Below are positions 23,971 to 60,759 of a DNA stretch of 64,000 nt, in pieces. Made by a program: the position numbers and the translations under genes. Each line of letters starts with the position of its first letter. Position 1 is the stretch's first letter. Under the pieces are notes generated by a model. That model ran no database searches. It was given only the letters and a program-made list of their open reading frames with translations, and was not told the origin of the DNA. Origin of the DNA: Escherichia phage KKE7M; sequence record PQ356295.1; one strand, given 5' to 3'.

Positions 23971-25704
23971 TTAGTCAACCTGGATGGTTCCCATAGTACG
24001 AAGAACCTCTACATCAACACGGTTGCGGATATCAGTGAATGTTTCATCACGTCCTTCTACTTGTGGTGTAATAACCTTACCATCCTTGAAGATAACTTGT
24101 AACTCATTGTCTTCATCCTGGATATCTTTAAAAGAAAGATTATCTACAAGAGAAAGATTACCATTGGTATCCTTAACAACCTTAATAAAACCTTTTGCAG
24201 AGCGTTTACCAGGATCAGTTTTAGGCTCCTTACTTACCAAAATTTCGTGTTCACCGATGATGCTACCTGTTGCTTTAACAGCAAAGCCAAAAGTATCTCG
24301 TGTATTGAACTGATAAGTATAACTACCAACACCAAATACAATATTGGAAGCTGCAAAACCTTTCTTCTTCAGTCGGCGTAAGATCTCGTGTTCTCGTTCA
24401 ACAGTAATAGAATCACCATAAATCATACCGATATGCTCATCAAGAACCTTGTAGCCTTTTCGGTTGATAGTACCACCAAACACTTCCCAAAGGATTTGAA
24501 TAGAACCTACTGCTTCACAATAAGGAATCTCATAAGTTTCATCAATACAGTCAGCAACACTACAATCCTGAAGAACATTGTAATACTTATTAACATCAGC
24601 CAAATGAACTACTTCAGTGGCTGTCGCAATACCATTATTTAAAAGATCTTCATAGTTGTCAAAAGATTCAACATTGTATCCTGCAACAACTTTAACCGGA
24701 TCTCCTGAATCTGGACGAATAACAAGACGACCATTTCGTGACATAATGGAATCTTTCAATTCTACCAGAATGCGAGTCAATACAGCCCAATAGTCATAAG
24801 AGTCTGCTACATATGAACAAAAACCTTCTGGAACAATTTCTTCGATATAACGACGAAGAAACTCTTTTTCTGCTACATAACGAAGCCCATCTACATCATC
24901 TTTAAGATGTGGGAAATGTTTCTTCAGATCTTCAACAATAGCTCCAATGTTAGTCGTTGCTACTGAATGTTCTGTTGCCGGAATCGAACCTGCAACAAAC
25001 TGATCATAATCAATACCATAATAGTCATGCACAGTTTCAATAGCCAGAATATTATCTGTTCCTGTGAACGATGCCAAGTGAGCGATACCACTCTTATAAC
25101 CATCTTCGATATTACTTAAACCACGTAGGCTAAAATCATGACACTGGAAGTTAACGTGATCAATATTATCACACGTTGCCATCGCATATGCCATAGCGAT
25201 ACGCTTATACTGAAAAGCTGCTGTGGCATTAGTCATTGTCTTCCAAGTTTCATCTGACAACAGTGTTTCCACATAGTTAGTTAACCAAAAGAATTTTTCT
25301 AAAGTATTATGCACAGTAAATACAGGAACACCAATAGGACACAAAACACCTTCTGGCAGAGATCGAACTTCCAGCGGAAGATAACCTAAATCGTGCAATT
25401 CTCCCCAACACTCAGCAGAAGGAGCAGAAGCACCTAATGCATTCTTAGACATACGATAAAATTTATTTACTGCTGCACTACGAGACATTTTAAAGAAGCC
25501 GTCCCACATAGTTACAAGAGCATCGGTTACTGCTCGACGAATACCTAAGACAATCACACCACGTGCTTCACGATCTGCATAGTGTGCAAAGTTTTTATCA
25601 TTACGAGGAGTTAAATTAGAGAAAATTAGTTTTGTATTTTGGTTGTACATCTGCTTGTGACCAGGTTTATACCAATCAGTAGCAAAAGGTGCAAAAATAT
25701 TCAT
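23971..25704 (-). CDS. nicotinamide phosphoribosyltransferase family protein (NAMPT/NadV-like; could be a Namat-type enzyme)
   Basis: 577 aa with RPDSGDP signature of the NAMPT/NAPRT family; adjacent to Prs-like gene. Confidence 0.75.
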   Translation of the reverse strand: MNIFAPFATDWYKPGHKQMYNQNTKLIFSNLTPRNDKNFAHYADREARGVIVLGIRRAVTDALVTMWDGFFKMSRSAAVNKFYRMSKNALGASAPSAECWGELHDLGYLPLEVRSLPEGVLCPIGVPVFTVHNTLEKFFWLTNYVETLLSDETWKTMTNATAAFQYKRIAMAYAMATCDNIDHVNFQCHDFSLRGLSNIEDGYKSGIAHLASFTGTDNILAIETVHDYYGIDYDQFVAGSIPATEHSVATTNIGAIVEDLKKHFPHLKDDVDGLRYVAEKEFLRRYIEEIVPEGFCSYVADSYDYWAVLTRILVELKDSIMSRNGRLVIRPDSGDPVKVVAGYNVESFDNYEDLLNNGIATATEVVHLADVNKYYNVLQDCSVADCIDETYEIPYCEAVGSIQILWEVFGGTINRKGYKVLDEHIGMIYGDSITVEREHEILRRLKKKGFAASNIVFGVGSYTYQFNTRDTFGFAVKATGSIIGEHEILVSKEPKTDPGKRSAKGFIKVVKDTNGNLSLVDNLSFKDIQDEDNELQVIFKDGKVITPQVEGRDETFTDIRNRVDVEVLRTMGTIQVD

Positions 25705-25775: not shown

Positions 25776-26669
25776 TTAAAAATTCCACACGTATGGAAAT
25801 ACAATTTGTTGTTGCAAATCTGACTGATTCTTAACAAGAACACCGGAATCTTCTTGGATGTTATCTTCCCACACATTAAGAGAATGAATGCAGTCAAAGT
25901 GCTCACTTAACTCTTTAAGACCTTTAGAAAAGATACCGTGTGTAACATATAACTCAATCTTACCTGCGTTACGAGCACGTAGCACTTTAGCCAACTCAAT
26001 AAAAGTTCTACCACCATCACAGATATCATCTACGATCATCAGGTTACGCTTATTGAAATCCTGTACAGAAATGTCTGTACGAACAATAGCACCTGTTGCG
26101 GTATCTCTAACCTTCTCTGCACAGAACACATCTAAAGACATTTTCTTAGATAATTTAAATATTTTCTTAAGAGCACCACCATCAGGGCTAACAAGAGCAA
26201 AATTCTCCATACGTAACTTCCACTTTAAAGTTTCGTAAGCAATCTCTTCTTGAGGTATTACACAGAGTCTGTCAAACACTGCTGGAGTAACATCACTGTG
26301 GGGATCAGCAACGATAACACGTGAGAAATTTAATGAGTTAATTATAGAAGCAAATGCTTTAACTCCGAATGCTTCTCCAGGCTCACACACTCTGTCTTGT
26401 CGTGCATACGGTACATACAGCATGAGTAAATCAACACAATATGGTTTATGATATAGCATATTGTCCAATGCATTCTTAGTCATAACCAAAGTCATCAAGT
26501 CTTTAGCAGATCTTACTTCTAAAGTGAGTAAGATTCTGTCTGTAGCATGATTGAAACCTGATAGATTCGTATCTAATTGAACATGTTGTTCTCCACCAGA
26601 GAATGTAAACACTTTAACGTCTACATCAGTAACATAACAGTCAACACCATGCAGAATACTAACTTTCAT
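25776..26669 (-). CDS. ribose-phosphate pyrophosphokinase family protein (Prs-like; could be an ADP-ribose pyrophosphokinase)
   Basis: 297 aa with VSPDGGA and DDICDGGRT PRPP-binding loop motifs. Confidence 0.8.
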   Translation of the reverse strand: MKVSILHGVDCYVTDVDVKVFTFSGGEQHVQLDTNLSGFNHATDRILLTLEVRSAKDLMTLVMTKNALDNMLYHKPYCVDLLMLYVPYARQDRVCEPGEAFGVKAFASIINSLNFSRVIVADPHSDVTPAVFDRLCVIPQEEIAYETLKWKLRMENFALVSPDGGALKKIFKLSKKMSLDVFCAEKVRDTATGAIVRTDISVQDFNKRNLMIVDDICDGGRTFIELAKVLRARNAGKIELYVTHGIFSKGLKELSEHFDCIHSLNVWEDNIQEDSGVLVKNQSDLQQQIVFPYVWNF

Positions 26670-40175: not shown

Positions 40176-41147
40176 ATGGCAGATTCTATTTCAGCAAAAA
40201 TTATTGCACACTCTCAAACATCTGAAGGTAAGGATATTGTTACCTTTGAACTTGAATATCCTCGAATCATTCACTCTGAATTGATGACGCATCGTTTGTT
40301 TTCTCGTAATGCTGCATCAAGTCGAGCTATCCCTGTTAAAACTCTAATTGAAATGGTACGGCAATCTCCAGCACGTCCTTATCGTTTTGGTGCTAACCAA
40401 CCAGGTATGCAAGATAAAGGCACAGATCACGATGCCCTAATTGATGCAGGTTACACTGCAAAAGAATGGTGGGACTTGGCTGCACTAAGTGCTGCACGTT
40501 TTGCAGAAGAGTTTGCCCTTGCTGGTTATCATAAACAGGTTGCAAACCGATTACTAGAACCATTCCAGCGTATGAAGACTGTAGTAACCACTACAGAGTT
40601 AGAAAACTTCTTGTGGTTGCGCGTAGATGCTGATGCAGATCCTACTATTGAGGCTCTTGCTAAAGAAATTAAAAAACTGTATGAATCTTCTGAACCATAT
40701 CTTCTTTTCCCAGGGGAGTGGCATACACCTTACGTTAATCGTGATCGAGATCCAGAAACTGGTATGATCCGTTATTTCTTGGGTGAAACCTTCTCCAACG
40801 AGAAAATGTTGACAGAAGACGAAGCAAAAGCTATTTCAGCTTCTTGTTGCGCTCAGGTAAGTTATCGTAAGTTGAATGATACTAAAGATAAAGCATTGGA
40901 TATCTATTCTCGTTTGCTGTCTGGACAAAAGGTACATGCATCTCCGTTTGAACACCAGGCAACGCCAATGAAAGAAATGGATTTGTCAGGATTAAAACAA
41001 CAGAAAGGTGGTATTAATATTCCTCCGTTCCCTTCCTCTTGGGAAGAAGGTATTACACATATGGATCGTAAACATCGTTTGTGGAGTGGAAACTTCTGCG
41101 GTTGGATTCAACATCGTCAACTTTTGACTAACCATACAAAATGGTGA
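40176..41147 (+). CDS. thyX: flavin-dependent thymidylate synthase
   Basis: ThyX signature HRLFSRNAASSRA (RHR...SxR). Confidence 0.85.
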   Translation: MADSISAKIIAHSQTSEGKDIVTFELEYPRIIHSELMTHRLFSRNAASSRAIPVKTLIEMVRQSPARPYRFGANQPGMQDKGTDHDALIDAGYTAKEWWDLAALSAARFAEEFALAGYHKQVANRLLEPFQRMKTVVTTTELENFLWLRVDADADPTIEALAKEIKKLYESSEPYLLFPGEWHTPYVNRDRDPETGMIRYFLGETFSNEKMLTEDEAKAISASCCAQVSYRKLNDTKDKALDIYSRLLSGQKVHASPFEHQATPMKEMDLSGLKQQKGGINIPPFPSSWEEGITHMDRKHRLWSGNFCGWIQHRQLLTNHTKW

Positions 41148-44196: not shown

Positions 44197-44217
44197 AGGG
44201 GGCTTTGTCCCCCTTTC
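44197..44217 (+). terminator. hairpin AGGGGG-CTTTGT-CCCCCT with T-run
   Basis: follows the nrdA stop. Confidence 0.4.
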
Positions 44218-44229
44218 TTAAGGAGGAAT

Positions 44230-44565
44230 ATGCCTACATTAGTTGTATTACCTGGGGCAACACCACAAAGACGCTGGGGAAATTATACACTGGTAGATAG
44301 TAAAGATTTTACATTCGATTGGTGTTGTCATTATATTGCAGGTTTTCAATTTTCCAGTGTTGAAATATGGGCTTCCAATGATCCCATAGCTACCTGGTAT
44401 GCTTTAACCAGAGCAAGGTATGAGGGAGAGGTTACTATATTACTCACAAAGAGTGTATGGGACGCATTAGAGAAGGCTTACCTAGAGGATGGTATGGAGA
44501 GAGAACACATTGATACAATAAAAGCAATGTGTGATATTGTGGAGGATTTAAATGGCAGCAATTAA
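44230..44565 (+). CDS. hypothetical protein between nrdA and nrdB
   Basis: ORF 44155..44565 in track; likely ATG 44230 with AAGGAGGAAT RBS. Confidence 0.45.
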   Translation: MPTLVVLPGATPQRRWGNYTLVDSKDFTFDWCCHYIAGFQFSSVEIWASNDPIATWYALTRARYEGEVTILLTKSVWDALEKAYLEDGMEREHIDTIKAMCDIVEDLNGSN

Positions 44566-45637
44566 CTTATACAACGACACTTACAAAGAAGGTTTCTACC
44601 CTGTATTTTTGGGAGAACAGTTAGGTATTTTTGATTCTATTAATGTAACATACCCAGAAATGCATCGTCTGTACAAACTACAAAAACAGCAAGATTGGGA
44701 TGAAAACGAAGTAAACTTAGATCAGACACGAAAAGATTTCGTAGCTTGTTCTAAAAGCAACTATGATGTTATGATCAAAAACCTATCCTTCCAATGGGAA
44801 AATGATTCACTTGCTAAATCAATCATCACTTTGTTTGCACCATTTTTAAGCAACAATGAAGCATGTGCAATGATGATGAAGCAATCAGAAATGGAAGTTT
44901 TACACGCTTTGACATATTCTGAAATTATTCGTCAGTGTATCCCTAATCCAAATGAAGTTATCGATCAGATTATGGAGAACGAAAGAATCTTCCAGAGGAT
45001 GGGTATAGTTGAAGAGATAATGAGTGATCTGGCAGAGGCAGGACATAAATATGCTCTAGGTCTGATTGAGAAGGATGATAACCTTCGTCTACTGATTCTG
45101 AAAGGAATGATTGCACTTATCGGTCTGGAAGGCATTCAATTCATATCATCTTTTGCTGCAACATTTGCCTTAGCAGAGCAGCAACTGTTTGTAGGTGCAG
45201 CTAAACTCATTCAAAAAATTATGTTGGATGAACTATTGCACGTTAAAATGGATTATGCTATTATTGATGCACTGCTGAAAGATCCTGTCTGGAGAAAAGT
45301 ATACGAAGATAATATCGACGTTCTGACAGAAATTCTTGACACGGTAGTTGGACAAGAGGAAGATTGGTGTGACTATCTGTTTAGTGAAGGAAGGATTATC
45401 GTTGGTGGTAACGCAGAGTTGTTCAAACTTTGGGTTTACTTCAATGCTGCGCCTATCTATCGCAGACTGAAAATGAAACACAAATTCCGTGCACCGAAGA
45501 AAAGTCCACTACCTTGGATGGATGTTTGGTTAAATCCAGACCAAATTCAAGCAGCAGCACAAGAGATCCAAATTACAGCTTACAAACTGAATTCAGCAAA
45601 TAAAGATGTAAGTGATGACGAGGAGTTAGACTTCTAA
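44552..45637 (+). CDS. nrdB: ribonucleoside-diphosphate reductase beta subunit
   Basis: 361 aa ferritin-like protein with paired Glu/His iron-ligand helices; downstream of nrdA. Confidence 0.85.
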   Translation: MAAINLYNDTYKEGFYPVFLGEQLGIFDSINVTYPEMHRLYKLQKQQDWDENEVNLDQTRKDFVACSKSNYDVMIKNLSFQWENDSLAKSIITLFAPFLSNNEACAMMMKQSEMEVLHALTYSEIIRQCIPNPNEVIDQIMENERIFQRMGIVEEIMSDLAEAGHKYALGLIEKDDNLRLLILKGMIALIGLEGIQFISSFAATFALAEQQLFVGAAKLIQKIMLDELLHVKMDYAIIDALLKDPVWRKVYEDNIDVLTEILDTVVGQEEDWCDYLFSEGRIIVGGNAELFKLWVYFNAAPIYRRLKMKHKFRAPKKSPLPWMDVWLNPDQIQAAAQEIQITAYKLNSANKDVSDDEELDF

Positions 45638-45855
45638 TGAAACTACTTTGTGTTGGATTAATTTCTGACTTCAAAGACGTTTTCGAAAAGGGAGCCTCTT
45701 ATGAGGCTTCCGAATTACAGAATGGTTTCTGTGATGTTTACGGCAAACGTTTAAAAAAGAATGGTGATCATTGGCTAGGAGTTATGTCTTGCGGTCATAT
45801 TATAGTTAATGGTGTAGCCAAGTTTGAAATTATCAAAGGAGAAAAAGATGATTGA
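45637..45855 (+). CDS. hypothetical protein
   Basis: 72 aa ORF, ATGA-type overlap with nrdB. Confidence 0.4.
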   Translation: MKLLCVGLISDFKDVFEKGASYEASELQNGFCDVYGKRLKKNGDHWLGVMSCGHIIVNGVAKFEIIKGEKDD

Positions 45856-46030
45856 TTTTGTTGATGTAGATATTAATTCTGACTTAACAGAAGATGAAGG
45901 TGGTGCTTTTGTGTGTTCAGATGGAGAGAAATGTTTTACTCTGATGGTAGAAACTTATGATGGTATCACAGAAATTCTGTTAACAGAGAATGAGTTAAAA
46001 CAGATGTTAGAAAAGATTGAGGAGCTTTAA
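45824..46030 (+). CDS. hypothetical acidic protein
   Basis: 68 aa ORF. Confidence 0.4.
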   Translation: MKLSKEKKMIDFVDVDINSDLTEDEGGAFVCSDGEKCFTLMVETYDGITEILLTENELKQMLEKIEEL

Positions 46031-46032
46031 TA

Positions 46033-46179
46033 ATGGACGATGTAAGTATTTGTCCTATCTGCGGCGGCACTGGGAATTTTATTGTTAGTATGGAACAATT
46101 TATTCCTTGTTGGAATTGTAACGGCTTAGGTTTCGTTCATACAGAAGAAAAAGAAGAGGAGGAAGATAGTGGGAGTTGA
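46033..46179 (+). CDS. small zinc-ribbon protein (DnaJ-type CxxCxGxG pair)
   Basis: 48 aa; CPICGGTG and CWNCNGLG; GAGGAG RBS; below track cutoff. Confidence 0.4.
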   Translation: MDDVSICPICGGTGNFIVSMEQFIPCWNCNGLGFVHTEEKEEEEDSGS

Positions 46180-46495
46180 TATTGCATGGCGTATGTTACA
46201 GGGTGCACCTTTTAATAAATGGGAAGAGGCTGTAGGAGAAGATCCTAAAATTGAAGAAGAATTTGGTGGAGATTTGAACTGGTTCTTACAAGAAGGTCTT
46301 GATTTAAGTCGTATCTCTCCTTTCTATGATGCTGATGAATCTTATTGCATATATGGCATTTATTTAGAAGGTGGCGAAGGAAGTATAGCTGTAGATCTTG
46401 AGCAACTAAATAAGAATGCAAAAGAAGCCTATGCACAACTTCTTGAAAAATATAACATTGAAACGGAAACTATTATTTCTCAACACGTTTGGTAA
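46169..46495 (+). CDS. hypothetical protein
   Basis: 108 aa ORF. Confidence 0.45.
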   Translation: MGVDIAWRMLQGAPFNKWEEAVGEDPKIEEEFGGDLNWFLQEGLDLSRISPFYDADESYCIYGIYLEGGEGSIAVDLEQLNKNAKEAYAQLLEKYNIETETIISQHVW

Positions 46496-46508
46496 GGAGG
46501 ATAGTAGA

Positions 46509-46706
46509 ATGATGCTAGATCAACTGATCAATGCTCCTCGCGTAACAGTAAGTCCAAAAACATTTGCATCACTTTTAGAAGATGCTAGAGAGGTTTATAA
46601 CTTTACTGAAGAAGAGCTTCCTGTTCCTGTTAAAAAAGGTTCCAGATGGTTATTTTATGAAGGTATTGTTTTTACTGAAGGGAATAATTGGAAGGAGACT
46701 AAATGA
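46509..46706 (+). CDS. hypothetical protein
   Basis: ORF 46416..46706 in track; likely ATG 46509 with AAGGAGGATAG RBS. Confidence 0.4.
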   Translation: MMLDQLINAPRVTVSPKTFASLLEDAREVYNFTEEELPVPVKKGSRWLFYEGIVFTEGNNWKETK

Positions 46707-47692
46707 AATACTTAGTAACAGGTGGTTTAGGCTTTATTGGAAGTGCGGTAGTTCGTTTCCTGGCTAAAAACACTAAGAATGATATTTACGTTATAGATAA
46801 ATGGGGTTACGCTTCAGACCCTAGAAATTTATCAGAAACACCTAATGTAAAGTTTTGTCGTGTTGACTTGACAAATGCTCAGTTAACTGCTAAGATTGTG
46901 GCAGATGTTAATCCAGATTATATAATGCATCTTGCAGCAGAAAGTCACGTAGATAATTCAATAGCATCACCGAGTGTTTTTATAAATTCAAATATTGTTG
47001 GAACATTTAATCTTCTAGAAGCTGTTCGTTTAATGGGAGATAAATCAAATCTTAAAATGTTTCATCATATTTCAACAGATGAAGTGTATGGTGATATGGA
47101 AGAAGGGGATTATCCGTTTACAGAACAGAATCCTTATAAGCCAAGTAGTCCATATGCTGCATCTAAGGCAGCAAGCGATCATTTGGTAAGAGCGTGGCAT
47201 CGTACTTATGGTATTCCAACAGTTATAACAAATTGTTCAAATAATTTTGGAGCGTATCATCATCCAGAAAAACTAATACCTAAAACGATAACAAATATCT
47301 TGATGCATAAACCAATCCCTGTTTATGGCAATGGTCTTCAAGTAAGAGATTGGTTATACGTTGACGATCACGCAGAAGCATTACACCTAGTAGTAACTAA
47401 AGGCAAATCTGGAGAAACATATAATATTGGGAGCAGAAACCCTAGAACTAATATTGATGTAATCTATATGATTTGTGATTATATGGATGCGGTGTATCCA
47501 TCTGAAACAGATGCTTGTAGCCTCATTGAGATGGTTACAGATAGACCTGGACATGATTTAAGATACGAAGTGAATCCTTATAAGATTGAAAAGGAATTAG
47601 GGTGGAAAGCTAAAGGCACATTTGAAGAAAAACTTTATTCAACCATTGATTGGTATGTAGATAACAAAGAGTGGTGGGAAAATAAAGTTTAA
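46703..47692 (+). CDS. rmlB: dTDP-glucose 4,6-dehydratase
   Basis: GGLGFIGS Rossmann motif, [20 protein letters not shown] (YxxxK). Confidence 0.8.
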
Positions 47693-47700
47693 GGAGGAGT

Positions 47701-48570
47701 ATGAAAGGTATTATCTTAGCAGGTGGTAGTGGAACAAGACTTTACCCAGTTACTAAAGGGGTTAGTAAACAACTATTACCAATTTATGATAAGCCTATGA
47801 TTTATTATCCACTCTCTGTCCTAATGCTTTCTGGAATTAGGGAAATACTAATAATTACAACACCAGAAGATCAAATTAATTTTGTAAATCTTTTAGGTGA
47901 TGGTTCTTCTTTTGGTATTTCCCTACAGTATGCAATACAGGATAGCCCAAGAGGTTTAGCAGAAGCGTTTATTATTGGTGAGAACTTTATTGGTGAAGAT
48001 TCTGTAGCACTTGTGCTAGGTGATAATTTATTCTTTGGTCAGAGTTTTGGTAGCATTTTAGATTCTGCTAAAGAACATATTGAAAAGAATGGTGGAGCTA
48101 ATATTTTTGGGTATCACGTAAATGATCCTGAAAGATTTGGTGTTGTTGAGTTTGATTCTGAAGGTACAGTGGTGAGTATTGAAGAAAAACCAAAAGCACC
48201 AAAAAGCAACTATGCAGTTACAGGCTTGTACTTTTACGATAATTCTGTTATACAGAAAGCTAAAAGCGTTAAACCTTCTGCTAGAGGGGAGTTAGAGATT
48301 ACAGATATAAATGAGATGTACTGGAAAGAAAAGACTTTACGTGTCTGTAAACTAGGAAGAGGTTTCACTTGGTTGGATACAGGAACACATGAAAGTCTTA
48401 TGGAAGCATCTCAATTTGTTCATGCAATAGAGAAGCAACAAGGTATGAAGGTTGCATGCCTAGAAGAGATTGCTTTTAAAAATGAATGGATTACTTTAGA
48501 TTCTGTAAAAAGTTCTGGAGAGGTTTTAAGTAAAACAGACTACGGTAAGTATTTACTTAAATTAAAATAA
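47701..48570 (+). CDS. rmlA: glucose-1-phosphate thymidylyltransferase
   Basis: [18 protein letters not shown]...[18 protein letters not shown], near-colinear with bacterial RmlA. Confidence 0.9.
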
Positions 48571-48581
48571 AGGGGAATTAA

Positions 48582-49136
48582 ATGATTCAAGCAACAAAAA
48601 TCGAAGACTTGTTGATCATTCAACCTGACGTTTATGGAGATGAACGTGGCTTTTTCTTAGAAAGTTTTAATCAGGCTTTATATGATCAATACATAGGTAA
48701 ACAAAACTTTGTCCAAGATAACCATTCACGTTCTATCAGAGGAGTTCTACGTGGGCTTCATTTTCAAAAGAAAAACCCACAAGGGAAGTTAGTACGTTGT
48801 GTTCGTGGTGAAGTTTATGATGTTGCTGTAGATATTAGGGTTGGTAGTCCAACATTTGGAGAATGGGTAGGTGTTCTCTTATCTGAAAAGAATAAAACAC
48901 AATTTTGGATTCCTCCTGGTTTCGCTCATGGCTTTGTTGTGATTAGCGATATTGCTGATTTTGAATACAAATGTACAGAATATTACGATCCGACTTCAGA
49001 GTGTAGTCTTGCGTGGAATGATCCAGATATCAATATAGATTGGGGTTTTGATTTAATCTTTAATGATATTAATTTTAAACCTATCTTGTCACAAAAAGAT
49101 CAGGAAGCCAAAACACTAAAGGAGATCATATTTTGA
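48582..49136 (+). CDS. rmlC: dTDP-4-dehydrorhamnose 3,5-epimerase
   Basis: 184 aa cupin-size protein with RGLHFQ motif; position in operon. Confidence 0.75.
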   Translation: MIQATKIEDLLIIQPDVYGDERGFFLESFNQALYDQYIGKQNFVQDNHSRSIRGVLRGLHFQKKNPQGKLVRCVRGEVYDVAVDIRVGSPTFGEWVGVLLSEKNKTQFWIPPGFAHGFVVISDIADFEYKCTEYYDPTSECSLAWNDPDINIDWGFDLIFNDINFKPILSQKDQEAKTLKEIIF

Positions 49137-49963
49137 CAAAATTTTTAGTCTTTGGTTCAAAAGGTCAATTAGGACAGTCTTTGGCAAAAGTTGCGCCAGA
49201 AGATGTTATTTTGATTGAAGCAAGTGATGTAGACATTACCAACTTTAAAGATGTTATGGATAGTCTTGTACAACATATGCCTGATGTTGTTGTGAATTGT
49301 GCGGCTTACACGGCAGTAGATAAAGCGGAAGAAGATGTTAACACCTGTATAAATGTTAATGCATACGGTGCAACAAACATTGCCAAAGCATGTAATGATT
49401 TACTGATACAGTTTGTACATATTTCAACAGATTATGTTTTTGATGGGAATGTTGCTGGCACAGAAGATAGTAAAACAAACCCCTTGAACATCTACGGTTA
49501 CAGTAAACAATTAGGTGAAACTTTAGTACAAACAGTTTGTCCTACAGCACTTATTATCAGAACAGCTTCTGTTTATAGTGAATTTGGACATAACTTTTTG
49601 AAAACTATGTTGGAACGCTACAACGGTGGTCAAAAAGAATTTAATGTAGTGTGTGATCATTTATCATGTCCTACTTATGCACCTGATCTTGCAGAAACAA
49701 TTTTTAAACTTGTAAAAGATGGTGTAAATAGTAAAATTGTACACTATGCAGGTGCAGATTATATTTCTTGGTATGATTTTGCACGAAAGATATTTCTTGT
49801 TATAGATTTATCTGTTACAGTTAATCCTGTATCTGCTTCAACCTATAATTCAAAAGCAGTCAGACCAGCAACATCTTATTTAAAAACAGATCCTACTTTA
49901 AATCCGCGAAGTGTTGATAGCGGTATTGTAAGAACTTTAACTATACTTTTAAACAAGGAGTGA
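49133..49963 (+). CDS. rmlD: dTDP-4-dehydrorhamnose reductase
   Basis: 276 aa, FGSKGQLGQ Rossmann N-terminus; last gene of rml set. Confidence 0.7.
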   Translation: MTKFLVFGSKGQLGQSLAKVAPEDVILIEASDVDITNFKDVMDSLVQHMPDVVVNCAAYTAVDKAEEDVNTCINVNAYGATNIAKACNDLLIQFVHISTDYVFDGNVAGTEDSKTNPLNIYGYSKQLGETLVQTVCPTALIIRTASVYSEFGHNFLKTMLERYNGGQKEFNVVCDHLSCPTYAPDLAETIFKLVKDGVNSKIVHYAGADYISWYDFARKIFLVIDLSVTVNPVSASTYNSKAVRPATSYLKTDPTLNPRSVDSGIVRTLTILLNKE

Positions 49964-50226
49964 AAATGAATTTTATTATCTACGGTAAACCAAATTGTCC
50001 TTTCTGCACTAACGCTAAGATTCTACTGGAACAGCGTGAACAGGATTTTAAATACCTTACCTTAGATGAAGACTATTCTTTAGATCAGATTCAGAATCTG
50101 GTTTTAGAGAAAACAGGTGTTCTACCACGCACATTTCCTCAGATTTTTGTGGAAGATGGTGAACAGCTAACCCACGTAGGAGGTTTTTCTGAACTACGTG
50201 AATTCATGGCTCAGATTGCGGAGTAA
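49960..50226 (+). CDS. nrdH: glutaredoxin (NrdH-like)
   Basis: 88 aa with CPFC redox motif. Confidence 0.75.
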   Translation: MKMNFIIYGKPNCPFCTNAKILLEQREQDFKYLTLDEDYSLDQIQNLVLEKTGVLPRTFPQIFVEDGEQLTHVGGFSELREFMAQIAE

Positions 50227-50229
50227 CAA

Positions 50230-50373
50230 TATGAAAGGTAAACAGAAACGTAAGATCTTTTCTCGTGCTTTGGCAACAGAGCTTAAGTCCCAAACTAAAA
50301 AGACGAAGCCTAAACGTGAAATGTCTCCTGAACACCTACTGTTTCAAGAGCTAGATCATGGGGAGGGCGACTA
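50230..50373 (+). CDS. small basic protein (47 aa)
   Basis: ATG 50230; Lys/Arg-rich; below track cutoff. Confidence 0.3.
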
Positions 50374-50386
50374 ATATAAGGAAAAC

Positions 50387-50887
50387 ATGGCTAAAGTAGT
50401 TGATGTGTTTGATATGTTACGTTTTGATGAAGGACTAAAGCTAACTGTATACACTGATACCGAAGGGTATTGGACAGTTGGTATTGGACACCTTCTGACA
50501 AAACTCAAAGATAAAGCAGAAGCTATACGCATTCTTGATAACTTAGTAGGTAGAAAAACCAATGGGGTTATTACTGAAGCGGAGGCTAGAAAAATCTTTG
50601 AGGGTGACGTAAAGAAAGCGATACAACAAATCCATTCAAGTACCATATTATCTCCTATTTACGATAAAGTAAGTCCTAATCGTAAAATGGCTATTATCAA
50701 TATGGTATTTCAAATGGGGTTGAAAGGTGCAGAATCTTTCAAAAATAGCTTGACTTTAGTGAGTAATTCATATTATACTCAAGCCTCTATAAATTTACGT
50801 AAAAGTAAATGGTATCGCCAAACGCCTAATCGCGCAGAGCGTGTAATTCAGGTGCTTAAAACTGGAACATTAGACGCTTATAACTAA
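50387..50887 (+). CDS. T4-type lysozyme (endolysin)
   Basis: DEGLKLTVYTDTEGYWTVGIGHLL catalytic region and WYRQTPNRAERV near-identical in pattern to T4 gene e product. Confidence 0.9.
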   Translation: MAKVVDVFDMLRFDEGLKLTVYTDTEGYWTVGIGHLLTKLKDKAEAIRILDNLVGRKTNGVITEAEARKIFEGDVKKAIQQIHSSTILSPIYDKVSPNRKMAIINMVFQMGLKGAESFKNSLTLVSNSYYTQASINLRKSKWYRQTPNRAERVIQVLKTGTLDAYN

Positions 50888-50888
50888 A

Positions 50889-50910
50889 CAAAGGGGCGAA
50901 AGCCCCTTTT
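50889..50910 (+). terminator. rho-independent terminator
   Basis: AAAGGGGC-GAAA-GCCCCTTTT. Confidence 0.65.
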
Positions 50911-50925
50911 ATAAGGAGTGCAAAC

Positions 50926-51678
50926 ATGGGAAATAAAACCGCAAAGGCTCGTCGTCAATCAGCAGCCAATGATGACAAACGTGCCAGTCGTTATGCGGCT
51001 AAAGCAGTAGGAAATGATGATTACCGTCTTGATGAATTTACCCCTATTGGGAATCAAGAAGCTATTGTAAGAAGCATGGTTTGGAATGACTTAACCATTG
51101 TTAATGCCCCAGCAGGAACAGGAAAAACAACAACAGCACTATGGAAAGCATTGCAAATGCTTAAAGCTGGTGACTTCAGAAAGTTGATTTTCCTTAAAAA
51201 CCCGACAGAAGTAGGTGATGATCAAATTGGTTTCTTATCTGGAGATAAGACTGATAAACTAGCAGCACACTATGAATCAACTAAAAGAATTTTCCAACAG
51301 TTTATGACTGCAAATAAATTGGAAAACGATATTGCAAGTGGCAAAATTGAACTTAATATTCCAAACTATGCACTAGGTGCTACGTGGGATAACAGCATTA
51401 TTCTTATTGATGAAGTTCAACTTATGTCACCAAATACAGTAAAACTTCTCCTTGAGCGAGCAGGTCTTAATACACGTATTGTCATTATGGGCGATGTTAA
51501 TCAAACATATGCAATTAAACGAAGAGCTAATGGGTTAGGTGATTTGTTAGATCGTGTTGTTCCTATTAACGAAGAAGGAGAAAGGGAAGCTATTGTAGAT
51601 TTTATTGGTTATGTTGAAATGACAACTGCTGATAACCAACGTTCCCGTTTGTCTCAGTTCATCACGGAAGTATATTAA
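50926..51678 (+). CDS. phoH: PhoH-like ATPase
   Basis: NAPAGTGKTT Walker A and overall PhoH length and pattern. Confidence 0.75.
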   Translation: MGNKTAKARRQSAANDDKRASRYAAKAVGNDDYRLDEFTPIGNQEAIVRSMVWNDLTIVNAPAGTGKTTTALWKALQMLKAGDFRKLIFLKNPTEVGDDQIGFLSGDKTDKLAAHYESTKRIFQQFMTANKLENDIASGKIELNIPNYALGATWDNSIILIDEVQLMSPNTVKLLLERAGLNTRIVIMGDVNQTYAIKRRANGLGDLLDRVVPINEEGEREAIVDFIGYVEMTTADNQRSRLSQFITEVY

Positions 51679-51714: not shown

Positions 51715-52206
51715 ATGACGCTAATTGAGATTGATCGCAATGGTATTGATGAATGCTATCAAGCTGGCTTAGTTAAGCCGAATGAGTTTAGACAGATTTA
51801 TATTGACAAGATTGAAAAAGAAATATCTCTTCGTTTAGAGAACATGACAACTTTGCAAAAAGTTCAGATGTTTTTTAGTTGGTTGAAAGGGGAGGATTGG
51901 CTAACTAAATATTACCAGGAATTATCTGATAGTCAAGAAGGCTTGTTTGAGTGTATAATAAATGTAGCTGGGTCTAATTCAGAATTACTCCTGATCGATG
52001 AAGAAGATTGTAAACTTCTTTTTCTTAGCAGCATCTTTCACAAGAAATCTATGTTAGTAAGAAATTGCAGTGATTTACTAAATCATCCACTAACAAGAAC
52101 TAATAAAATTCTTGTGGATAAAGAAACACTAAGAGCTATTGATTACCTCCGTAAATATGTAAGCGGTGGTAAAGCAGTCCTTAAAACACTACAGGAGGAA
52201 GTATAA
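51715..52206 (+). CDS. hypothetical protein
   Basis: 163 aa ORF. Confidence 0.45.
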   Translation: MTLIEIDRNGIDECYQAGLVKPNEFRQIYIDKIEKEISLRLENMTTLQKVQMFFSWLKGEDWLTKYYQELSDSQEGLFECIINVAGSNSELLLIDEEDCKLLFLSSIFHKKSMLVRNCSDLLNHPLTRTNKILVDKETLRAIDYLRKYVSGGKAVLKTLQEEV

Positions 52207-52859
52207 TGACAACAATTATTGCAACACGTAACAAAATTCTGTCTGACGGTAAGGTAACAGTAGGTAGTCGTGTAGACACTTTAAATTTCAAGAAAGTGCG
52301 TAAAATTGGGGACTACCTTGTTGGTGGTGCAGGACGTCTGTCTTCTATCCTGACTTTCTTTTCTTGGTTTGAACAAAACTTACAATGCCAGGCAGCACAA
52401 GAGACAATCCCAGGTTTGGTGATCCAGTCAGATCCCGATAAAGAAGATGAAGAGTTTGTGGCATTGGTTGTTCACCCAGACGGTAAAATTTATATGCACG
52501 AGGGTAATAATCCAACTCGAGCATATCCTTTAACTGAAGATTATTATGCAGTTGGTAGTGGGGCAGATTTTGCTTTAGCAGCTTTAGATGCTGGGGCAAC
52601 CCCGGAAGAAGCGATGGAAGTTGCAAAACTACGAGATGCTTTTTCAGGTGGTGAAACTTTTGTCGAAGAGATCGAAGAACAACTGGAGTTAACAGCGGAA
52701 GATATTCTGAACTTCAGCAAGGAGCAACTAATTAGTATGCTGTTGACTGGTGATCCTGATAGTGATGAAGCTGAAAGTATTTTAGCAGAAATGAAAGAAT
52801 CACAAGAAAAAGTATTGACAGTCTCTGAAAAACTTGATAAAGTATCCTCTGATAATTAA
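52206..52859 (+). CDS. HslV-like Ntn-hydrolase peptidase (proteasome beta-type), candidate
   Basis: N-terminal MTTIIA (Thr nucleophile after Met), KKVRK and AVGSGADFALAALDAG parallel HslV blocks. Confidence 0.45.
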   Translation: MTTIIATRNKILSDGKVTVGSRVDTLNFKKVRKIGDYLVGGAGRLSSILTFFSWFEQNLQCQAAQETIPGLVIQSDPDKEDEEFVALVVHPDGKIYMHEGNNPTRAYPLTEDYYAVGSGADFALAALDAGATPEEAMEVAKLRDAFSGGETFVEEIEEQLELTAEDILNFSKEQLISMLLTGDPDSDEAESILAEMKESQEKVLTVSEKLDKVSSDN

Positions 52860-57201: not shown

Positions 57202-57780
57202 ATGAGCGATTTATTCTACACAGGTGTTGGTAGCAGAGACATTACAGACGAAGAATGGGACACTATGGTAGCTGTTGCAAAATGGTTATCTACATGGTTC
57301 ATTTTGCGATCTGGTAAAGCAGAAGGTGCAGATTCCGCATTTGAATGCGGGGTATATGATAGTGGAAACAATACAAAGAAAGAAATATACATTCCTTGGC
57401 CTTCGTTTAAAGGTAATGAGATAGAGGGAGAGGTTATTGTTCTTGACAGACCCGATAGTGTAAACTATGCTCTAACTTTGCAATATGCAAAAGAATTGCA
57501 TCCAGCTTGGGACAGATTATCTCAAGGTGCTAAAAAATTACATCAAAGAAATATCCACCAAGTTCTTGGCAGAGATCTTGAGAATCCAAAACCATCTTGT
57601 TTTCTTTTAGCTTGTGCAAATACAGATAAGAATGGAGATCCTTTAGGTGGTACAAGAACAGCTTGGATGTTGGCTAAAAAGTTTAATGTTCCTTGTTTTA
57701 ATATTCGAGGTAAAAGTAAAAAACAAATCTTCGAATTTATTAAACCTATTTTAGAGGAGAATGGTCTTGTCCAGAAATAA
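57202..57780 (+). CDS. SLOG/DprA-like Rossmann-fold protein (candidate)
   Basis: ORF 57085..57780 in track; likely ATG 57202 with AAGGAGAAAACC RBS; GVGSRD...SGKAEGADS pattern. Confidence 0.3.
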   Translation: MSDLFYTGVGSRDITDEEWDTMVAVAKWLSTWFILRSGKAEGADSAFECGVYDSGNNTKKEIYIPWPSFKGNEIEGEVIVLDRPDSVNYALTLQYAKELHPAWDRLSQGAKKLHQRNIHQVLGRDLENPKPSCFLLACANTDKNGDPLGGTRTAWMLAKKFNVPCFNIRGKSKKQIFEFIKPILEENGLVQK

Positions 57781-58285
57781 TATAAGTGTCATTAAAGATA
57801 GCTTTATTGATGTAACAAACGATATTGTACCTACAATACAATATATAGTTGAGGCACAAGGTTTAAACTTCATACGTGATAAAGTTAAGATTGTTTTTCA
57901 TAACACTCCAGGTTTTGTAATAGTAGGTTCAACAGAAACGATGTATCCTACAGATCTGATCACTTTAGACAAAAACTTAACACAAGAAGAAGTAGAAATT
58001 CTTAACCTCTATTGGTTAGGTTTTAAAAGATATGAGGATACAGCTTTATCCCGAATGTCAACTATTTTAGCTAATATTCTGGTGCGGAAAATTTCTAAAA
58101 TATGGGATGAAGAAAACCCAGATGAAATAATTTTACACTTTGCTAAACCGGAAGACGGGGCATATGATATAGACACATCTGAAATGGCTTATGGGTTTAT
58201 TATTTCTGGTAATGTATTACAGATGGAATCTTTATTGTATGTTGAGACAGTAAAACACAATAACAATTACGAGGAGGTTGTATGA
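57761..58285 (+). CDS. hypothetical protein
   Basis: 174 aa ORF overlapping upstream gene end. Confidence 0.45.
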   Translation: MVLSRNNISVIKDSFIDVTNDIVPTIQYIVEAQGLNFIRDKVKIVFHNTPGFVIVGSTETMYPTDLITLDKNLTQEEVEILNLYWLGFKRYEDTALSRMSTILANILVRKISKIWDEENPDEIILHFAKPEDGAYDIDTSEMAYGFIISGNVLQMESLLYVETVKHNNNYEEVV

Positions 58286-58539
58286 AAGGTTTAGAGTTTA
58301 ACTTTGTAGATGCGTGGGAAGGATGGGATGAACTAGGAGTAGGGGATTTATGTTTTTATGATGTTACCTTGAAGGAAGAATACAAACATCTAGCTCCTAG
58401 TGAAGATTGCGATGTGATTCTATCTATTCTATTAAGTCAGTCTATAGTGCAATTCGATTTCTTAAAAGGTAGTGAATGTATTGAAAGTAAAGCATTCCGT
58501 TTGGAAGTTTCTCTTGGTGAAGAAATTCCTGTAGAATAA
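58282..58539 (+). CDS. hypothetical protein
   Basis: 85 aa ORF. Confidence 0.45.
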   Translation: MKGLEFNFVDAWEGWDELGVGDLCFYDVTLKEEYKHLAPSEDCDVILSILLSQSIVQFDFLKGSECIESKAFRLEVSLGEEIPVE

Positions 58540-58544
58540 TATAA

Positions 58545-58567
58545 ACCCGCTTCGGCGGGTTTTTTGT
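58545..58567 (+). terminator. rho-independent terminator
   Basis: AAACCCGC-TTCG-GCGGGTTTTTT. Confidence 0.7.
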
Positions 58568-58621
58568 TGACAACACCAGTTTTTTCGAATAAACTACAGA
58601 AAAACAGAAGAGGAGATTAGC

Positions 58622-59035
58622 ATGTACTATAGTGACTATTTTGTAAACCCAACAAAAGAACAACTTCAATCGGCAGTGGATAAGATGCAGATTGTAGTTA
58701 AAGAATGTGAGAAAATAAGAAAACAACTACAAGAAGAAACTGTTGTTGTTAATAAATGGTTTGGTCTTAGAAAGAAGGTTGTTAGTAAACACAATATCAT
58801 CCTTGAAAAAGCAAAAACGACAGGGACTAGTTACGCCTTACAAGGCTTGTTGCTAAATTACATTGATATAGAACAACATTCTCTTCTGCACTGTTGGCTT
58901 CACAGTCCTAGTATTGAGGATCTCTTGTTCTGGTTGTCGTGTGAATCTGTACTTTTAAACGAAAATGAGGCTTACCGTTTAAACTTCTGCCTTAAGGCAG
59001 AGTTACCAGCTAGTGTTAAGGAGAAGAAGCAATAA
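58622..59035 (+). CDS. hypothetical protein
   Basis: 137 aa ORF with GAGGAGA RBS. Confidence 0.5.
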   Translation: MYYSDYFVNPTKEQLQSAVDKMQIVVKECEKIRKQLQEETVVVNKWFGLRKKVVSKHNIILEKAKTTGTSYALQGLLLNYIDIEQHSLLHCWLHSPSIEDLLFWLSCESVLLNENEAYRLNFCLKAELPASVKEKKQ

Positions 59036-60024
59036 TGAAAGTTTTAAGTCTTTTTGATGGTATGTCAGGAGGAATGCTTGCACTAAAAAGCGCAGGTATT
59101 GAAGTAGATAAGTATTATGCCTCAGAATTGGACAAATTTGCCATAGCTGAAAGCCAAGCCAATTTTCCAGATATTATTCAATTAGGTGATGTTACAAAAT
59201 GGAGAGAATGGGATATCCCGTGGGGAGAAATTGATCTTTTGTTAGGTGGTAGCCCGTGCCAAGGCTTCTCTTCTTCTGGTAAGGGTTTGAACTTTCAAGA
59301 TCCGCGATCTAAACTGTTCTTTGAATATGTTGAAATTCTTGAACATATTAAAAAGTTTAACCCTAATGTTAAGTTCATGCTTGAAAACGTTAAGATGAAG
59401 GTGGAGTGGGAAAACGTGATCACAAGTTACTTAGGTGTTGATCCCGTATTCATTAACTCCGCAGATTTCACGGCACAGAATAGGCAACGTTTATACTGGT
59501 GCAATTGGGAAATAAAACCTTGGGATATTACCAATGAAGTGTTGCAAGATATCATTGAAGATGATAGTATCGTAGACAGAGATAAGGCTTATTGCATAGA
59601 TGCAAATTATGCCAAAGGTGGTAATATAGAACAGTATTTTGAAAAGAGTCGCAGACAACTGGTTTTTTATCCGGCAGCAATATATGGGCGTAGAATTAAT
59701 GAAAATGGCAAACGTAGTACATCTAAAACTGATCGTTTGGTACATTGTTTGGAAGTTCAGGACAGTGAAAAAACTCGTTGCCTCACGACTGTGCCTAAAG
59801 ACGTACTACTAGCTTACATTCCACCTGGAAGATATCTAGATGCCTTTGAAAAATTGAGTGAAGGCGTACATTATAGAAAGTTAACGGTTAAAGAGTGTTG
59901 CCGCTTACAAGGTGTTCCAGATGATTACTTTAAAGTGAGTAGTAACACACAAGCATATAAGATGTTAGGCAATGGTTGGACTATACCTGTCATTGCGCAT
60001 ATTCTTAAATCTATGGAGGAATAA
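59035..60024 (+). CDS. DNA (cytosine-5)-methyltransferase
   Basis: motif I LFDGMSGG, motif IV GGSPCQGFS, motif VI ENV. Confidence 0.85.
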   Translation: MKVLSLFDGMSGGMLALKSAGIEVDKYYASELDKFAIAESQANFPDIIQLGDVTKWREWDIPWGEIDLLLGGSPCQGFSSSGKGLNFQDPRSKLFFEYVEILEHIKKFNPNVKFMLENVKMKVEWENVITSYLGVDPVFINSADFTAQNRQRLYWCNWEIKPWDITNEVLQDIIEDDSIVDRDKAYCIDANYAKGGNIEQYFEKSRRQLVFYPAAIYGRRINENGKRSTSKTDRLVHCLEVQDSEKTRCLTTVPKDVLLAYIPPGRYLDAFEKLSEGVHYRKLTVKECCRLQGVPDDYFKVSSNTQAYKMLGNGWTIPVIAHILKSMEE

Positions 60025-60147
60025 TGGAAACATTGTGGAAAGGCTGGAAGACTGCTCTGATAGCTTTTATAATTCCATTAACTTTTCTTGGTTGGTGTTT
60101 TTGGGAATTTATCTTTTGGGTAATTTCCCATATACATTGGGGGTAAT
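60025..60147 (+). CDS. small hydrophobic peptide (40 aa)
   Basis: ATG with GGAGG RBS directly after the methyltransferase stop; below track cutoff. Confidence 0.35.
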
Positions 60148-60759
60148 ATGACTCAAAAAGTTGCATATCAAGTAGATCGTGAAGATGGTGAAGGTAGCGT
60201 TGTAGTTTTTGATACACATGGTCTTGCAGCAAGACGCAGAGGCGCTTGTCTATTGGACATTGGTGGTGAAGATGAATACTGCACTGTACGTAGAGTAAAA
60301 GAATTTGATCAATACGCTGAAAAAGGTTTTGTACCTGCAAAAGCACTATTAGAAGCTGGATGGTGGATACCTAGTGCACATGATTATGATATTTTGGAAT
60401 CAGATACAGACGAGTTTAACAGTGAAAATTTTGTTTTCTCTCTGGATGAAAAATGCGTTTGGAAAGATTGGGATGAAATGGAACGCCATGCTTATTTTAT
60501 AAACGAAGCATTAGATCGTAAAACTTGGTTTGAAAATACAGTTAAAGCAGCGTATCCTCAATTTACTTTTACAGAGTTTTGGGGTGGCCCACACCATATT
60601 ACTCATGTGGCATACTTCGAGTTCCCAGGCTCACGCTATAAAGGTACTGTCTACTGGGATTGGGACGAGGACAAAGAACCTTCTGCTCAAGACTTCCGTT
60701 GCTATGTTTGTCAAGGTGATCAAGAAGCCCTTGACAAGTACCTTAAAAGTCTGGTATAA
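60148..60759 (+). CDS. hypothetical protein
   Basis: 203 aa ORF. Confidence 0.5.
   Translation: MTQKVAYQVDREDGEGSVVVFDTHGLAARRRGACLLDIGGEDEYCTVRRVKEFDQYAEKGFVPAKALLEAGWWIPSAHDYDILESDTDEFNSENFVFSLDEKCVWKDWDEMERHAYFINEALDRKTWFENTVKAAYPQFTFTEFWGGPHHITHVAYFEFPGSRYKGTVYWDWDEDKEPSAQDFRCYVCQGDQEALDKYLKSLV

Follow-up and report, generated by a model that had tools for sequence, protein, structure and literature searches.

A complete dTDP-L-rhamnose gene cluster in a phi92-like coliphage and its possible link to a phage-borne glycosyltransferase cassette

Introduction

Genes for the synthesis of dTDP-L-rhamnose are an established feature of phages related to phi92, and in the GenBank records of phi92 (gp64-67), phAPEC8, ESCO5, the BASEL phages Bas60-62 and others all four of them already bear rml names. 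Olsen (2020) termed the cluster "peculiar" and suggested DNA glycosylation as its role (PMC7552041), and Maffei (2021) mentioned a "putative dTDP glycosylation machinery" in phages of the Bas60-62 type (PMC8594841). Annotated and discussed between 2012 and 2021, the cluster is known, and the stretch of DNA analysed here, 64,000 nucleotides of Escherichia phage KKE7M (PQ356295.1; hereafter the window), is one further isolate carrying it, in the order rmlB, rmlA, rmlC and rmlD (rmlBACD). The rml cluster itself represents textbook biochemistry in a known phage group; what we add is the pairing of rmlC and rmlD with a cassette of four glycosyltransferase (GT) genes found elsewhere in this type of genome. 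Our literature search found no published functional test of the rml genes in phi92-like phages.

T-even phages, which glycosylate their DNA, use host UDP-glucose for this purpose and carry no donor pathway. Mimivirus has a UDP-L-rhamnose pathway, and in giant viruses the acceptor is a glycan of the capsid or of the fibres. The mycobacteriophages Che8, Corndog and Myrna reportedly glycosylate their virions, a finding attributed to Freeman et al. (2023) and known to us through citing papers. In two such papers, gp108-110 of Che8 are described as virion glycosyltransferases, and virion glycosylation is presented as proven for a group of mycobacteriophages that includes the cluster F type (PMC11256854, PMC12363180).

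Results

All four rml genes are present on the + strand of the window and in one orientation, as had been stated in the preliminary description of this DNA. Family membership was defined as a score above the curated equivalog cut-off of NCBIfam, and every gene exceeded it. RmlB, the dTDP-D-glucose 4,6-dehydratase (46703..47692, 329 aa), scored 441.7 bits against TIGR01181 (cut-off 365.1); RmlA, the glucose-1-phosphate thymidylyltransferase (47701..48570, 289 aa), scored 473.6 bits against TIGR01207 (cut-off 360.65) with a match spanning residues 2-288 of 289; RmlC, the dTDP-4-dehydrorhamnose 3,5-epimerase (48582..49136, 184 aa), scored 259.8 bits against TIGR01221 (cut-off 155.75); and RmlD, the dTDP-4-dehydrorhamnose reductase (49133..49963, 276 aa, with a TTG start), scored 254.9 bits against TIGR01214 (cut-off 224.05). 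The Pfam domains were consistent with all four assignments. The spacing of the genes is as tight as claimed before, with gaps of 8 nt between rmlB and rmlA and 11 nt between rmlA and rmlC, followed by a 4-nt overlap (TTGA) of rmlC and rmlD, and a Shine-Dalgarno sequence precedes every one of them.

The translation of rmlB contains the GxxGxxG motif (GGLGFIGS), the TDE motif (STDEVYG) and the YxxxK catalytic motif (YAASK), and that of rmlA shows the N-terminal nucleotide-binding signature GGxGTRL, present as GGSGTRL, together with a second conserved segment of the family. In an alignment with RmlC of Salmonella (1dzr), the His of GLHFQ, the Lys of QGKLVRC and the Tyr of FEYK (F(E/L)YK) were conserved in the phage RmlC, whose C-terminal Asp falls outside the aligned stretch, the SQKD motif being present in the translation. 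RmlD, aligned to the structures 3sc6 and 1vl0 of the Protein Data Bank (PDB), retains GSKGQLG, STDYVF (STDYVFDG) and YGYSK. The two RmlA segments are signatures of their family, and the Rml motifs are known to be catalytic. Judged by family scores and intact motifs, all four are genuine representatives of the RmlA, RmlB, RmlC and RmlD families, and the predicted pathway would very probably be active in infection.

The preliminary description had seen no glycosyltransferase and had proposed to look for one elsewhere in the genome. Its observation holds for the window, since relatives have no annotated GT in the corresponding stretch, but not for this type of genome: Escherichia phage Antha (PP925826), with 99.5% nucleotide identity in the rml region, carries four tandem GT genes at 57459-60635 (locus L008, 12459-15635), which places them about 73 kb from rmlB, outside the window, and just upstream of the genes for primase/helicase and DNA polymerase I. 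GT1 (187 aa, phrog_14179) and GT2 (228 aa, phrog_2456) are of the GT-A type with a DxD motif, whereas GT3 (337 aa) and GT4 (314 aa) are paralogues within phrog_7162. The AlphaFold model of GT4 is a confident GT-B fold (pLDDT 94.7), that of GT2 (pLDDT 88) gave generic GT-A matches, and the fold of GT3 was assigned through the PHROG family it shares with GT4. The closest structures to the modelled GT4 are enzymes of the GT4 family, namely GlgM, BshA, MshA, PglA, GtfC/Gtf3, SdgB and TarM, and the structural neighbours of the modelled GT2 include WrtF, RmlT and TarP. Searches in PDB and BFVD thus returned a generic GT-B of the GT4 family for GT4 and a generic GT-A for GT2, neither of which indicates a donor or an acceptor. 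Sequence searches of GT3 and GT4 against PDB gave no meaningful match, and none of the four GTs matched a family in NCBIfam. Their families are small and almost entirely phage-borne, comprising 58 and 17 clusters among 5.8 billion proteins.

When occurrences were counted over 50,697 phage records, the numbers for the cassette followed those for the last two rml genes closely. At an identity of at least 95%, 54 records were counted for RmlC, 54 for GT1, 55 for GT2 and 53 for GT4, and at 60-80% identity the respective counts were 77, 77, 71 and 74. Sorted by organism name, every GT had matches in 105-106 Escherichia records, a number equal to that for RmlC and RmlD, and matches came from no further group of records. 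The counts are those expected if the Vequintavirinae have neither the GTs nor rmlC and rmlD, and suggest that this is so. On this distribution, rmlC/rmlD and the GT cassette appear to be co-inherited, which is not proof of a functional link.

Conservation of the rml locus was followed over four lineages of the Stephanstirmvirinae, represented by phi92, ESCO5 (Phapecoctavirus), phiWec186 and Klebsiella phage 05F01. All four share one gene order (nrdA, x, nrdB, small open reading frames (ORFs), rmlBACD, grx, small ORF, lysozyme and phoH), with identities of the Rml proteins to those of the window down to 42-70% and that of RmlC as low as 52%. Between lineages, the proportion of nonsynonymous differences (pN) was 0.17-0.41 and that of synonymous differences (pS) 0.62-0.83, with the flanking nrdB and phoH behaving alike; pN and pS are compared here, and no dN/dS ratios are given, because synonymous sites are saturated. 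Since pN is far below the saturated pS, sustained purifying selection on the rml genes is indicated. The notes in the phi92 record equate NrdB with gp139 and the glutaredoxin with gp141 of PVP-SE1, a member of the Vequintavirinae, which are the sister subfamily, and as nrdB and grx are nearly adjacent there, the rml block would be an insertion specific to the Stephanstirmvirinae.

Some relatives have kept half of the pathway. In Klebsiella phage FKP3 (L003, 6645-8391) and Escherichia phage ESCO37 (L013, 3605-5343), rmlB and rmlA are cleanly absent and a 327-nt ORF abuts rmlC-rmlD; FKP3 also carries a reduced GT cassette. Counts of tblastn records show RmlC and RmlD without RmlA in at least about 25 relatives, the Escherichia records numbering 87 for RmlA against 105 for RmlC and 106 for RmlD, and the Klebsiella records at most 2 for RmlA against 8 for each of the other two. 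Enterobacteria make dTDP-4-keto-6-deoxyglucose via RffH/RffG for enterobacterial common antigen (ECA). As the host can in this way supply the substrate of RmlC, RmlC and RmlD are exactly the steps which it cannot be relied on to supply, and these are the ones that every phage keeps. The best reading of this pattern is that only RmlC and RmlD are indispensable to the phage and that some relatives dropped rmlB and rmlA. A published comparison of ESCO37 with ESCO5 likewise found them to differ in rmlA/rmlB and not in the GTs (PMC10269720).

Given that rml genes are common in enterobacterial rfb loci, the cluster might be taken for a neutral passenger recently captured from a host O-antigen locus, a reading which the data render extremely improbable. 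A blastn search of 5,426 complete E. coli genomes matched the region in every one of them, but at no more than about 65% identity over 52% of its length, and none covered 80% of it or more. The proteins are 56, 65, 55 and 36% identical to RfbB, RfbA, RfbC and RfbD of E. coli O4, and the phage order BACD contrasts with rfbBDAC of the host. With 33.8-35.1% GC and a GC content at third codon positions (GC3) of 18-24%, the rml genes resemble their phage neighbours in GC3, the window having 37.2% GC and the E. coli rfbBDAC set 35-47%. Together with the synteny kept across the lineages examined and the low pN beside saturated synonymous sites, this rules out a recent host origin, and both the AT-rich, phage-like composition and the independence from host DNA proposed in the preliminary description are borne out. 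Within the clade of the window, RmlA sequences agree at 98-99%; a second clade, on contigs of phage size (about 118-155 kb), stands at about 80%, and the enzymes of Vibrio, Pseudoalteromonas and Acinetobacter at 70-73%. In a neighbour-joining tree that carries no support values and is indicative only, the phage sequences cluster apart from the bacterial ones.

Nucleotide and protein matches to phage records identified the source of the window as a phi92-like myovirus (Stephanstirmvirinae, Justusliebigvirus). Besides Antha, the BASEL phage Bas62 (JohannJBalmer) is close to it, with 99.0% nucleotide identity in the rml region, and altogether 55 phage records match this region at 95-99.5%. Members of the ESCO series are 98.5% identical to the window, and in the RmlC protein its identity to phi92 is 100%. 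Four GenBank records labelled "Campylobacter phage" (MG065639, MG065645, MG065656 and MG065689, with the names A150, A145, C3 and A110a) are 98.6% identical to window positions 46000-51000, and a fifth, B15 (MG065650), came up in the GT1 protein search only, its match of 66% being Phapecoctavirus-like; these host labels are probably wrong or due to contamination.

The rml genes lie in the nucleotide-metabolism block, as stated earlier, with nrdB and a glutaredoxin gene as neighbours, but they are wedged between the two on one side only. Whereas grx (49966..50226, +, 86 aa) adjoins rmlD, nrdB, encoding the class Ia ribonucleotide reductase small subunit (44552..45637, +; PF00268 116.5 bits; NF006576), and rmlB are about 1.07 kb apart, with five small ORFs (45637..46706, +) in between. 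The start of the redoxin is most likely the ATG at 49966, with its Shine-Dalgarno sequence located within the 3' end of rmlD. The protein had been called NrdH-like; it is instead a glutaredoxin with a CPFC active site (PF00462, 45 bits), the NrdH model giving 20.5 bits only against a cut-off of 85.75, and it is the probable reductant of NrdAB. Among the small ORFs, one of 65 aa has a stop codon overlapping the rmlB start, and another of 108 aa (46169-46495, +) encodes an acidic protein of phrog_15453. The latter ORF, of 327 nt, is the one kept directly upstream of rmlC in relatives that have no rmlBA, and its product may be linked in function to the rml pathway, or may not.

A G+C-rich hairpin followed by a T-run stands just after nrdA (44198..44212, +; GGGGGCTTTGTCCCCC TTTCTT), and a second hairpin follows the lysozyme gene (50890..50909, +; AAAGGGGCGAAAGCCCCTTTT); no terminator-like hairpin was found between 44.2 and 50.9 kb. 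The two are likely to mark the upstream and the downstream boundary of a transcription unit, and because they are the only terminator-like hairpins nearby, the rml genes are apparently co-transcribed with nrdB, grx and the lysozyme gene. A promoter scan of 41-53 kb gave 39 sites where 42 were expected, and hence no excess. Downstream of this unit, and conserved in the subfamily, are genes for a PhoH-like ATPase (50926-51678, +) and an HslV/proteasome-like peptidase (52206-52859, +).

In the wider window, the sign of the GC skew flips at about 27000 and about 63000, which corresponds to strand switches. The replication and nucleotide-metabolism block is on the + strand, and the part from position 1 to about 26.7 kb carries structural and tRNA genes on the - strand, among them those for the major head protein (11678-12679, -) and a head decoration protein (12701-13093, -), with NAMPT (23971-25704, -) and PRPP synthetase (25776-26669, -) encoded towards its end. 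In Antha, a second lysozyme gene and the GT cassette are directly preceded by a Ter-type cluster at about 44.5-56 kb (L008, 1-11108), which comprises genes for TerC, a vWA-TerF-like protein, TerD, a "tellurite resistance protein", a phosphatase, a hydrolase and an ATPase.

Discussion

From the gene content of these phages, we lean towards rmlBACD as the donor-sugar supply of the phage's own glycosyltransferases. Expressed early or in the middle of infection, the cluster would make dTDP-L-rhamnose from host glucose-1-phosphate and dTTP, and in the phages that have rmlC and rmlD only, the two enzymes would start from the product of host RffG. A pathway of its own would secure the donor sugar in a host of any serotype or O-antigen type, which fits the very broad host range of the Bas60-62-type phages (PMC8594841, PMC11990801). 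The cassette, with its two GT-A and two paralogous GT-B enzymes, could then build a short rhamnose-containing glycan on an acceptor chosen by the phage.

As to this acceptor, virion proteins are our tentative first choice and the host envelope is a less likely one; DNA is less likely again, and the remainder goes to other acceptors. For proteins speak, in the first place, the neighbourhoods of GT3/GT4 homologues: in Burkholderia dolosa, one lies in an operon with an invasin/intimin-like adhesin, and another bacterial homologue stands beside a pertactin autotransporter (L015, 3025-8440; L016, 100-5501). In small metagenomic phages, homologues occur as pairs of GT-A and GT-B directly upstream of the genes for small terminase, portal and capsid (L017, 6216-7984), and on an unrelated metagenomic phage contig a GT3/4 homologue adjoins NDP-sugar enzymes. 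GtfC, Gtf3 and SdgB, all of them adhesin glycosyltransferases, rank among the top structural matches, and several of these matches act on serine-rich adhesins; distant homologues of GT2 (25-27% identity, E about 1e-7) are found in the GT locus of cluster F mycobacteriophages, for example in the N-terminus of Job42 gp103. Neighbourhoods, structural matches and GT2 homologues lend modest support to a protein acceptor. That phi92/phAPEC8-like phages decorate their own virion proteins with a rhamnose-containing oligosaccharide, made by the four-GT cassette and fuelled by their own rmlBACD, is a possibility which we put forward with some doubt.

Several points weigh against such a role. No donor sugar could be assigned to any of the GTs from sequence or fold, and most enzymes of the GT4 family use UDP- or GDP-sugars. 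E. coli K-12 has an rfbBDAC set of its own, in the presence of which the phage rml genes would be redundant. With about 73 kb between them, the rml genes and the GTs may each be no more than part of the core gene set of the subfamily. BLASTP of the phage GTs against Che8 gp108-110 showed no detectable similarity, with E-values of 0.2 or worse; a search of the structural proteins for a Ser/Thr-rich tail of the kind that extends the Che8 capsid gave nothing convincing; and our literature search found no report of glycosylated virions for the phi92-like group. The only Ser-rich tail seen belongs to a non-structural hypothetical protein of 196 aa encoded near TerC (Antha CDS0134; L008, 5094-5684), which ends in SARKSYSSPISSYSKSSKSYSSSKRSFSSS; to regard it as a glycosylation substrate would be pure speculation.

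Instead of its own virion, the phage might modify the envelope of its host, its GTs using dTDP-rhamnose on lipid-linked or surface glycans (O-antigen, lipopolysaccharide core, ECA or NGR) and so blocking superinfection, keeping progeny off debris or tying up undecaprenyl phosphate. The structural neighbours of the GTs would be in keeping with this, as those of the GT-B type include PglA, with its undecaprenyl-PP-linked acceptor, and TarM, which acts on teichoic acid, and those of the GT-A type WrtF, RmlT and TarP. Yet the two stretches inspected, Antha record positions 1-112,500 and the part of Bas62 corresponding to window positions from about 26 kb to the end at 64 kb, have no annotated gene for a flippase, a polymerase or a membrane-anchored GT, and a strictly lytic phage with a short cycle has little time for a turnover of the surface. 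To our knowledge, no function of this kind has been described for a lytic coliphage. In the established pathways, RffH/RffG make the ECA precursor, which RmlC and RmlD would moreover draw away. Such a depletion was given little weight because it is the NGR glycan, and not ECA, that is now described as the glycan receptor of Bas60-62 (PMC11990801). The many fibres and spikes by which these phages recognise glycans of the cell surface (PMC8594841, PMC11990801) are in favour of envelope remodelling, which we nevertheless consider unlikely. DNA, the acceptor proposed by Olsen (PMC7552041) and one of the options in the preliminary description, would receive rhamnose on a base, in the manner of the glucosylated hydroxymethylcytosine (hmC) of T-even phages, and would thereby evade DNA-targeting defences. 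The place of the rml genes amid nucleotide metabolism and of the cassette beside primase/helicase and DNA polymerase genes would suit this role, and GT2 gave two weak matches, both sub-threshold: one to the TET-associated glycosyltransferases of PF20691, at 23.3 bits against a gathering threshold of 27.5 and over 60 residues around the DxD motif, so that it falls outside that family, and one to the beta-glucosyl-HMC alpha-glucosyltransferase family phrog_842. On the other side, Bas60-62-type phages were found to be "exceptionally susceptible" to restriction-modification despite their dTDP machinery (Maffei 2021, PMC8594841), and HincII digests the DNA of ESCO-series members (PMC10269720). The sole thymidylate synthase homologue, annotated as "thymidylate synthase" (40176-41147, +, 323 aa, phrog_85), is a divergent phage ThyX (35.8 bits against TIGR02170, cut-off 87.9) and not a hydroxymethylase of the ThyA family. 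No hydroxymethylase or TET/JBP gene is annotated in the Antha and Bas62 stretches, no genome-wide HMM scan having been made, and the alpha- and beta-glucosyltransferases of T4 are not among the top 50 structural matches. DNA glycosylation is therefore disfavoured, and we hold it to be improbable.

The pathway might also work with no GT at all, buffering dTTP or dTDP-sugars or diverting them for the sake of nucleotide metabolism, as the preliminary description had considered for the dTTP pool. Its apparent co-transcription with nrdAB and grx, close to genes for thymidylate synthase and thymidine kinase, would agree with this, and so would the arrangement in the unrelated jumbo phage PAU of Sphingomonas, in which rmlB-rmlC-rmlA lie within about 2 kb, two genes downstream, of thymidylate synthase (L021, 3356-8437). 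Proximity of rml genes to those of thymidylate metabolism thus recurs in phages. However, the relatives that have RmlC and RmlD without RmlA, ESCO37 and FKP3 among them, are devoid of the only step that consumes dTTP, and a phage replicating 145 kb of AT-rich DNA gains nothing obvious by consuming it, which leaves pool manipulation with very little probability.

With these alternatives considered, a pathway serving the phage GTs remains the reading that we hold with moderate confidence, and it sharpens the question why a strictly lytic coliphage with a very broad host range has held on to its own route to rhamnose, the final two steps above all, from a time before the lineages examined diverged. 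Natural knock-outs exist in ESCO37 and FKP3, both without rmlBA and the latter also with its smaller set of GTs. If virion proteins were the acceptor, no earlier example of a glycosylated virion would be on record among phages of Gram-negative hosts, nor one of a phage with the donor pathway as well as the transferases. The coat could affect immune recognition, stability and self-adsorption to host glycans, and would bear on the pharmacology of phage therapy, phi92-like phages having appeared in several therapy-oriented isolation studies. DNA as the acceptor would mean a new DNA modification, and the host envelope a takeover function of a kind new to lytic phages.

Compared with the systems described so far, the cluster of the window shows no material difference from that of phi92, phAPEC8, ESCO5 and Bas60-62. 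With the bacterial rmlBDAC (rfbBDAC) operons it shares the four enzyme families and the predicted product, dTDP-L-rhamnose, but it is placed in an nrdB-grx operon, in BACD order, and not beside wzx, wzy and GT genes. Its neighbours are nrdB, small ORFs, grx, lysozyme and phoH, and no wzx or wzy is annotated in the stretches of Antha and Bas62 named above, so that it is not a locus of the O-antigen type. T-even DNA glycosylation has in common with these phages a GT-B enzyme, a nucleotide-sugar donor and a placement among replication and nucleotide genes; in contrast to the dCMP hydroxymethylase and glucosyltransferases of T-even phages, or the arabinosyl-hmC of RB69, phi92-type phages have restriction-sensitive DNA and no hydroxymethylase was found in them, and the rml locus thus lacks the features that define the T-even type. 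The cassettes for virion glycosylation in mycobacteriophages resemble the one described here as multi-gene sets of GTs outside the structural operon, from which it differs in the Gram-negative host and in the full donor-sugar pathway borne by the phage; a similar way of working is possible. Cyanophage RN05-S and Sphingomonas phage PAU, as here, combine a virus-encoded 6-deoxyhexose pathway with GTs, although the enzyme sets are different. By analogy, the rml genes and the GTs would seem to work most like the sugar-nucleotide and GT cassettes of cyanophages, of PAU and of giant viruses.

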